A DNA stretch of 64,000 bases from Eledone cirrhosa (Eukaryota). How positions within the stretch are numbered: position 1 is the stretch's first letter; each line of letters opens with the position of its first letter. Both the position numbers and the translations under genes were made by a program. A model generated the notes under the pieces. That model was given only the letters and a program-made list of their open reading frames with translations. It was not told where the DNA came from and made no database searches. The DNA lies in NCBI GenBank assembly GCA_964016885.1, contig OZ024751.1, forward strand, positions 36,208,001 through 36,272,000, written 5' to 3'. Positions 39,243-39,440 of this stretch are shown here, piece by piece.

Positions 39243-39440
39243 ATAGGAACGAGTAGGACCCCGACGGCTGAGCTCAAGCCGTTTCGACGGCTAATTTTGG
39301 ACCAGAATTAGCCGTCGAAATGGCTTGAGCTCAGCCGTCGGGGTCCTACTCGTTCCTATTACCCACTCTACTACCCACTATGATACTATTGAGTACTTGG
39401 TGCGTTTGGTCCACCTGGTTCCCTTACCACATCCTCGTTA
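39243..39440 (+). mobile_element. Family A fold-back element (~58-bp arms plus tail) in (TA)n
   Basis: 39243-39300 and 39302-39359 are reverse complements apart from two mismatches; each arm has GAAA-stem III-GUC. Confidence 0.85.

Follow-up and report, generated by a model that had tools for sequence, protein, structure and literature searches.

What is the palindrome at 39243, and is such a structure made afresh at each insertion or carried along as a unit? The locus lies in a 64,000-nt stretch of AT-rich, microsatellite-rich, animal-type DNA (hereafter the window), and an earlier note, written from the letters alone, had read each arm as the 3' half of a hammerhead ribozyme mirrored about its stem II. 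The palindrome proper is 117 nt long (39243-39359, apex 39301) and its arms mirror each other at 95.7%. An unmirrored 79-nt tail (39360-39438) follows directly, and (TA)n tracts flank the whole element, 39243-39438, on both sides. The folding z of about -17 for 39243-39359, with 0/200 shuffles as stable, is expected of any such palindrome. The parts are:

39243..39300, minus strand: short (tail-less) arm, an inverted copy of the 3' part of the repeat (family A), with (TA)n at its end.
39286..39316, plus strand: apex hairpin in the putative stem II position, apex A at 39301, T-G mismatch at 39297/39305.
39317..39346, plus strand: putative hammerhead 3' half, with GAAA at 39317-39320, a stem III-like hairpin at 39320-39338 and UC at 39338-39339.
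39360..39438, plus strand: unmirrored tail, lying between the two 3' ends of family A and followed by (TA)n.

The order of parts that had been claimed for the arm (hairpin, GAAA, stem III, UC, stem I strand) was borne out at 39286-39346, the putative stem I 3' strand starting at 39340 with GGGGTCC after the UC at 39338-39339. Neither CUGANGA nor a stem I partner was present in 39317..39346. The earlier note was also right that CUGANGA is missing from the palindrome: GACGGC is nowhere in the 64-kb window preceded by CTGANGA. Position 15.2 is T in this copy and C in the other family A copies.

BLAST searches found eight copies of family A in the 64 kb, all of them 3' fragments of 50-200 nt: three palindromes with two apex types, four single-armed copies and one copy joined head to head with another family. 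The copies other than 39243 are:

51955..52148, minus strand: second palindromic copy, apex 52090, with three copy-specific changes, all in the short arm.
50005..50144, plus strand: third palindromic copy, with the other apex at about 50032 and a short arm carrying an internal deletion between direct repeats.
57647..57896, no strand assigned: fusion of families A and B, head to head with a 2-nt overlap, (TA)n at both outer ends, one tract.
57647-57786, minus strand: family A part of the A/B fusion, tailed.
About 57785-57896, plus strand: family B 3' part of the A/B fusion, tailed.
57034..57153, plus strand: copy with a single arm, whose start lies 26 nt before GAAA within a natural hairpin that is not mirrored.
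21281..21380, minus strand: single-armed copy truncated at GUC.
16256..16352, minus strand: diverged single-armed copy found by BLAST.
7166..7212, plus strand: short single-armed fragment found by BLAST.

Across the eight copies the 3' end is constant at (TA)n and the 5' end is variable, with 7/8 of the 5' ends falling 8-26 nt before GAAA. An inverted 5'-truncated copy adjoins the 5' end in 3/8 copies, in addition to the one cross-family case, and no partial tandem of the pLTR-forming kind was found among the eight.

We concluded that the 39243 palindrome consists of two 5'-truncated copies of an abundant repeat, placed head to head in (TA)n, and was likely made at insertion by the protein of a Penelope-like element (PLE). 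Retro-insertion of the PLE type is highly likely. The layout is already known: the typical PLE is published as having an inverted 5'-truncated copy, a tail of 30-40 bp at one end and a preference for (TA)n, and the tail is ascribed to endonuclease resolution (Craig 2021, PMC8557442). Octopus Naiad and Hydra families with (TA)n preference are given in the supplement of that paper, and inverted repeats of variable size were described for Penelope (Schostak 2008, PMC2377424). Hammerhead pairs on opposite strands, 100-700 bp apart, have also been reported (Cervera 2014, PMC4209133). Family A resembles the endonuclease-bearing (EN+) PLEs (Penelope/Poseidon, Neptune, Naiad and Hydra; PMC8557442) in its inverted truncated copy, one-end tail, heavy 5' truncation and (TA)n target. 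It differs in that its tail, at 75-79 nt, is roughly double the published length of 30-40 bp, and in that it was seen here without a reading frame, a pLTR tandem or a clade assignment; a search of the PMC8557442 supplement for four motifs of family A found none of them. PLE membership of family A is probable.

A search of the 150 longest of the 219 open reading frames in the window gave no Pfam match to a reverse transcriptase (RT) or GIY-YIG domain; the only match was a C2H2 finger in a duplicated repeat. This C2H2 finger-like frame lies in the repeat pair 6557-7148 / 52695-53323 (also 23937-24095), whose members are up to 97.6% identical and probably represent the 3' end of a LINE. The window also holds an abundant SINE-like family of 190 nt (20148-20333, 28068-28229, 40938-41151, 45611-45798, 49661-49846, 55509-55650 and 59567-59771), a CA/TA-rich satellite of about 7 kb with extreme GC skew (7755-15044) and a run of 200 N (43793-43992). 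In the available portions of a study of O. vulgaris repeats, active Penelope families are described and neither hammerheads nor palindromes are mentioned (PMC13282606).

Two other kinds of element were compared with family A. Non-LTR retrozymes (PMC7229834; bioRxiv 10.64898/2026.07.22.740005) are likewise short, non-coding, hammerhead-related and PLE-linked, but as described there they form head-to-tail tandems with complete cores, whereas family A lacks the core and occurs head-to-head or singly; this assignment was rejected, with no head-to-tail tandem units with a full core among the eight window copies. A DNA foldback element or MITE favouring TA would share the inverted repeat, the TA flanks and the missing coding capacity. 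However, the repeat is central rather than terminal, the arms are unequal, 4/8 copies are one-armed, and the ends vary at 5' and not at 3'. This explanation is very improbable, as the polarity of truncation goes most of the way to refuting it.

The same layout was found in three further families of the window, B, C and D:

15518..15950, no strand assigned: palindrome of family B, each arm of which has an intact minimal type I hammerhead.
40467-40660 (also 15387-15501): family C, a palindrome about a hairpin, after which come GAAA and a short stem III.
50190-50429 and 1426-1570: two palindromes of family D that differ in their apexes, one of which lies in an A-run, and that show no clear hammerhead.

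In all 7/7 same-family palindromes of the four families, one arm is tailed and the other tail-less, a pattern with a chance of 0.5^7 = 0.008 if the ends were chosen independently and equally. This count left out the inverted repeat 16653-16877 (77%, spacer of about 70 nt, near TA tracts) as unclear. The apexes sit on hairpins in families A, B, C and one copy of D. In family B the apex is placed some 75 nt upstream of the core, and for this reason both arms keep intact hammerheads; in a relative at 36015-36316 the core is intact, with a perfect hairpin of 47 nt upstream of it. Since the apex of B is upstream of the core and that of D varies, the apex follows hairpins or microhomology generally and not stem II as such.

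Next, we asked whether the family A arm derives from a hammerhead. GAAA with five further Watson-Crick pairs and UH arose in 1/5000 dinucleotide shuffles of the 51955 arm; the same test gave 212/5000 for the 39243 arm, which carries the C>T change at position 15.2. All 7/7 family A sense arms that extend as far as GAAA have it intact, and U16.1 is intact in 8/8. A sister family, F, was identified beside a family A copy, which it adjoins across one TA tract:

21082..21213, plus strand: family F, with GAAA, a 4-bp stem III and UA in the same place as in family A.

Family F aligns to family A at a level reached by 1/2000 shuffles, and its stem III shows one G-C to A-T compensatory change relative to A (by eye, in too few sequences for covariation analysis); in the GAAA-stem III-UH test it gave 274/5000 shuffles. 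With the value of 326/5000 shuffles in the same test, family C is a tentative candidate for a second coreless half. The position of GAAA, 39-60 nt before the short end, is alike in families A and B, and intact minimal hammerheads were found near (TA)n at +1125, +5428, +15853/-15705, +20646, -24431 and -36173 (two by script, the rest by eye). Several of the cores at +1125, +5428, +20646, -24431 and -36173 have a long stem II.

Compared with a type I hammerhead, family A has the GAAA, the A15.1-U16.1 pair, the UH, the palindromic stem III/loop 3, the C before GAAA, a long stem II and a position near the 3' end. It differs by having no CUGANGA and no stem I 5' strand, both absent from all eight window copies, and its stem III of 6 bp is longer than that of a minimal hammerhead. 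A stem I partner is supplied by the mirrored arm only. The claim of a hammerhead 3' half gained from the shuffle rarity of the 51955 arm and from family F; upstream CUGANGA was not found. From these letters we judge it likely that the arm is the 3' half of a type I hammerhead. The copies as they stand, with a coreless 3' half in both arms, are predicted to be inactive.

The arm might instead owe nothing to a hammerhead, with AGCCGTC placed twice around its complement and the apparent stem III and GAAA being by-products of alternating short repeats; this question is independent of how the joint forms. One and the same 7-mer does precede both GAAA and the putative cleavage site, and the cDNA end folds best as an alternative 6-bp hairpin with GAA in the loop. 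CUGANGA was found neither upstream of the family A arms in the window nor in the first 30 letters of the upstream read classes listed, and Rfam returned no hammerhead match. But family F keeps GAAA, stem III and UH without the 7-mer repeat of A and with the one compensatory pair, and GAAA and U16.1 are retained in every arm noted above. The Rfam search gave 0 matches at the gathering score, and scans by E-value gave hairpin and microsatellite look-alikes only; these scans also missed the intact hammerheads at 24431 and 15853 and hence are no test. We consider the short-repeat origin rather doubtful and continue with the hammerhead reading.

Several other candidates were set aside. A type II or a permuted reading of family A through the CTGA six letters past GUC failed, with no CUGANGA and no stem I. 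The pattern of CUGANGA, the family A stem II and GAAA was matched at two viral loci. One of them, L012:301-331 on the minus strand, is an intact type I hammerhead in a 7.6-kb viral contig, and it was rejected as a relative: it has the same stem II letters but was selected by that pattern, and its stems I and III are unrelated. Pattern scans of viral contigs gave nine chance matches in one scan and 0 in another, both scans of prokaryote genomes gave 0, and two matches in metagenome contigs, in a GC-rich, fungal-looking locus, were put down to chance.

Public reads were mapped to copy 51955-52148 for 4/20 listed runs; X5 and X9 gave three and two records, too few for use. In run X18, 23,895 of 12,467,656 records aligned, none of them long enough to bridge the stretch. 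Two TA-flanked 3' ends were found, at 51957 (6,729 reads) and 52032 (3,569 reads), 75 nt apart, and a further 1,397 reads clipped at 52044 by a divergent stretch were counted with the end at 52032. At AATT, position 52085, 7,230 molecules of this run stop; we take this to be the restriction site of the library, and because it hides the apex of copies like 51955, read counts past 52085 are biased. Within X18, the apex variant G at 52094 (109/271 reads) makes a perfect mirror, and A was read at 52097 in 96/152 reads, the mirror position of a T variant at 52083, with same-read linkage inferred. Six contigs of run X1 have an apex shorter by 5 nt.

Among the 15 joints listed for X18 (18 in all), 13 are head-to-head, and the partner arm stops at variable places, in several joints inside the tail (51996, 52006, 52010, 52021, 52025 and 52026). 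The clustering of joints at 52082-52089 is partly an artefact, since the reference has nothing natural upstream of there. Another 1,741 X18 reads run on upstream without mirroring (agreement 0.76) and contain a natural hairpin resembling the one in copy 57034. The hairpin at the apex thus exists without mirroring, both in this copy and in the read class that continues upstream, as the placement of a stem II-like hairpin before GAAA had implied. In the main upstream read class (1,741 reads, median 80 letters; 15 of 377 loose-end rows), neither CUGANGA nor a stem I 5' strand occurred within the first 30 letters, and no pile-up of read ends at the predicted cleavage site was seen among the rows listed. 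As a side observation, in the 40 of 146 rows listed a CpG asymmetry was seen, with sense C>T in 4/5 and G>A in 0/5; these 40 rows do not include the GAAA and GUC positions, RAD depth is uneven and the asymmetry was not relied on.

How is the joint made? The best explanation, which we hold with slightly better than even confidence, is priming at two ends with the cDNAs joined at a template hairpin. The PLE enzyme would nick both strands of (TA)n and prime cDNA twice, on one strand from the outer start site, with the tail included, and on the other from the inner start site. Both cDNAs would stall in or near the template hairpin and then be joined by annealing at the hairpin or at microhomology. 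For family A, stem II of a type I hammerhead probably serves as this hairpin, and a joint in stem II, downstream of CUGANGA, would leave a coreless 3' half in both arms. A related enzyme behaves comparably in vitro: in Anolis Poseidon PAc, two RT start sites bracket the tail, both strands of an AT-rich target are nicked and extended, and ribozyme cleavage is dispensable (Frangieh 2024, PMC11167929). The system differs from family A in the spacing of the start sites, and a reconstituted inverted joint was not seen in that work. Two-end priming was absent from the earlier reading, which had offered snap-back and self-priming on stem II or propagation as a unit; it fits at least as well as snap-back, and it accommodates both the A/B fusion at 57647-57896 and the joints in which the partner arm stops in the tail.

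With the same PLE origin, a single cDNA from the outer site could fold back on the template hairpin and copy itself as far as the inner site, with the endonuclease resolving the product. This snap-back is possible and is the main rival. It agrees with the hairpin position of the apexes in families A to C and in one copy of D, with the subfamily letters mirrored in both arms of 3/3 family A palindromes, with the 7/7 one-tail pattern and with the endonuclease resolution to which the tail is ascribed (Craig 2021, PMC8557442). The A/B fusion and the in-tail joints are hard to explain in this way, however: the fusion, which has two tails, needs two templates unless it arose by a later deletion between two neighbouring insertions, and in the joints the tailed arm does not get beyond the tail although its partner reaches the hairpin. 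The family D apex, moreover, differs between two copies and lies in one of them in an A-run. Folding of the cDNA end did not separate snap-back from annealing of two strands. We lean towards two-end priming and regard snap-back as unlikely.

Both processes differ from the second proposal of the earlier note, in which the coreless palindrome or a subfamily of it is transcribed and retrotransposed as one unit. Its chief attraction is that copies 39243 and 51955-52148 share the apex down to the mismatch and the short-arm end, as had been claimed for the minus-strand copy, even though their flanks are unrelated to each other. The shared short-arm end does not serve as evidence for a unit, however; it is the family-wide second 3' end (3,569 reads) that bounds the 75-nt tail. 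The form occurs in only 2/8 window copies, at least three other apex types exist, and the one arm-specific mismatch in common lies 4 nt from the apex and could be encoded by the template, while the other four arm differences are copy-specific. No copy-specific change mirrored in both arms was seen among the window palindromes. With apexes and joints varying, propagation as a unit is mostly not supported and quite improbable, and we think it highly likely that the palindrome is formed anew at each insertion, in our preferred reading by two-end priming.

A separate element in the window carries a complete set of hammerhead blocks apart from one strand of stem II:

19970..20094, plus strand: TA-flanked, 5'-truncated element, separate from family A, with hammerhead blocks in permuted order.
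19976-81: GGTA-UC.
19982-89: stem I strand.
19998: GAAA.
20002-05: stem III strand.
20017-24: stem I partner.
20025-31: CUGACGA.

Stem III of this element has 4 bp and an A-U pair, stem I has 8 bp, and the upstream strand of stem II is missing. A script search of the window for the permuted order gave one match, 19976-20031, and 1/200 shuffled windows gave one. A permuted S-G-C order for family A was rejected, the window-wide search having matched 19998 only and no family A copy.

Several Naiads are marked 'HHR_half_core' in the supplement of Craig 2021 (PMC8557442). By eye, four unrelated sets of Naiad 3' ends published there show the permuted order: the loop of a 6-bp stem II holds, in this order, the 3' strand of stem III, UH and the 3' strand of stem I; GAAA and the 5' strand of stem III come next, and the 5' strand of stem I, with CUGAUGA, lies further on. 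The stem sequences differ between the four sets. Naiad ends with such apparent non-circular hammerheads include both Octopus Naiads, and two further entries of this supplement resemble a C-S-G order (both by eye). Ribozymes of S-G-C order from metatranscriptomes were validated by Eckert 2023 (PMC10085705), where CUGANGA is assumed to be joined to stem II. The blocks of 19970-20094 stand in the S-G-C order of the SGC/CSG/GCS hammerheads of that work. They depart from these in that the Naiads close stem II with a strand from upstream and not with the one that follows CUGANGA, and family A does not fit S-G-C. A literature search found nothing on family A, on stem II-centred joints or on permuted Naiad hammerheads, a weak result with most subscription papers and the Repbase reports outside its scope.

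Whether the permuted motif of the 19970 element and the Naiad ends is a working ribozyme seems to us evenly poised. Half cores at the 3' ends of (TA)n-targeting PLEs may have two causes, a joint in stem II, as in family A, or a core that is complete but reordered. If true, the latter would represent a non-circularly permuted hammerhead in four pieces and would not be among the six block orders treated by Eckert 2023 (PMC10085705); and if the permuted motif cleaves, it would revise the view that Naiads lack canonical hammerheads and add a new ribozyme connectivity.

The 39243 palindrome is in itself ordinary PLE architecture, and its worth lies in the material that it offers on how inverted 5' copies arise. 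The genome seems rich in short events of this kind: they span several families, follow the one-tail pattern strictly, have their joints centred on hairpins and in at least one case link two families. This suggests that a PLE family can amplify widely even though most of its inserted copies are without a ribozyme core.
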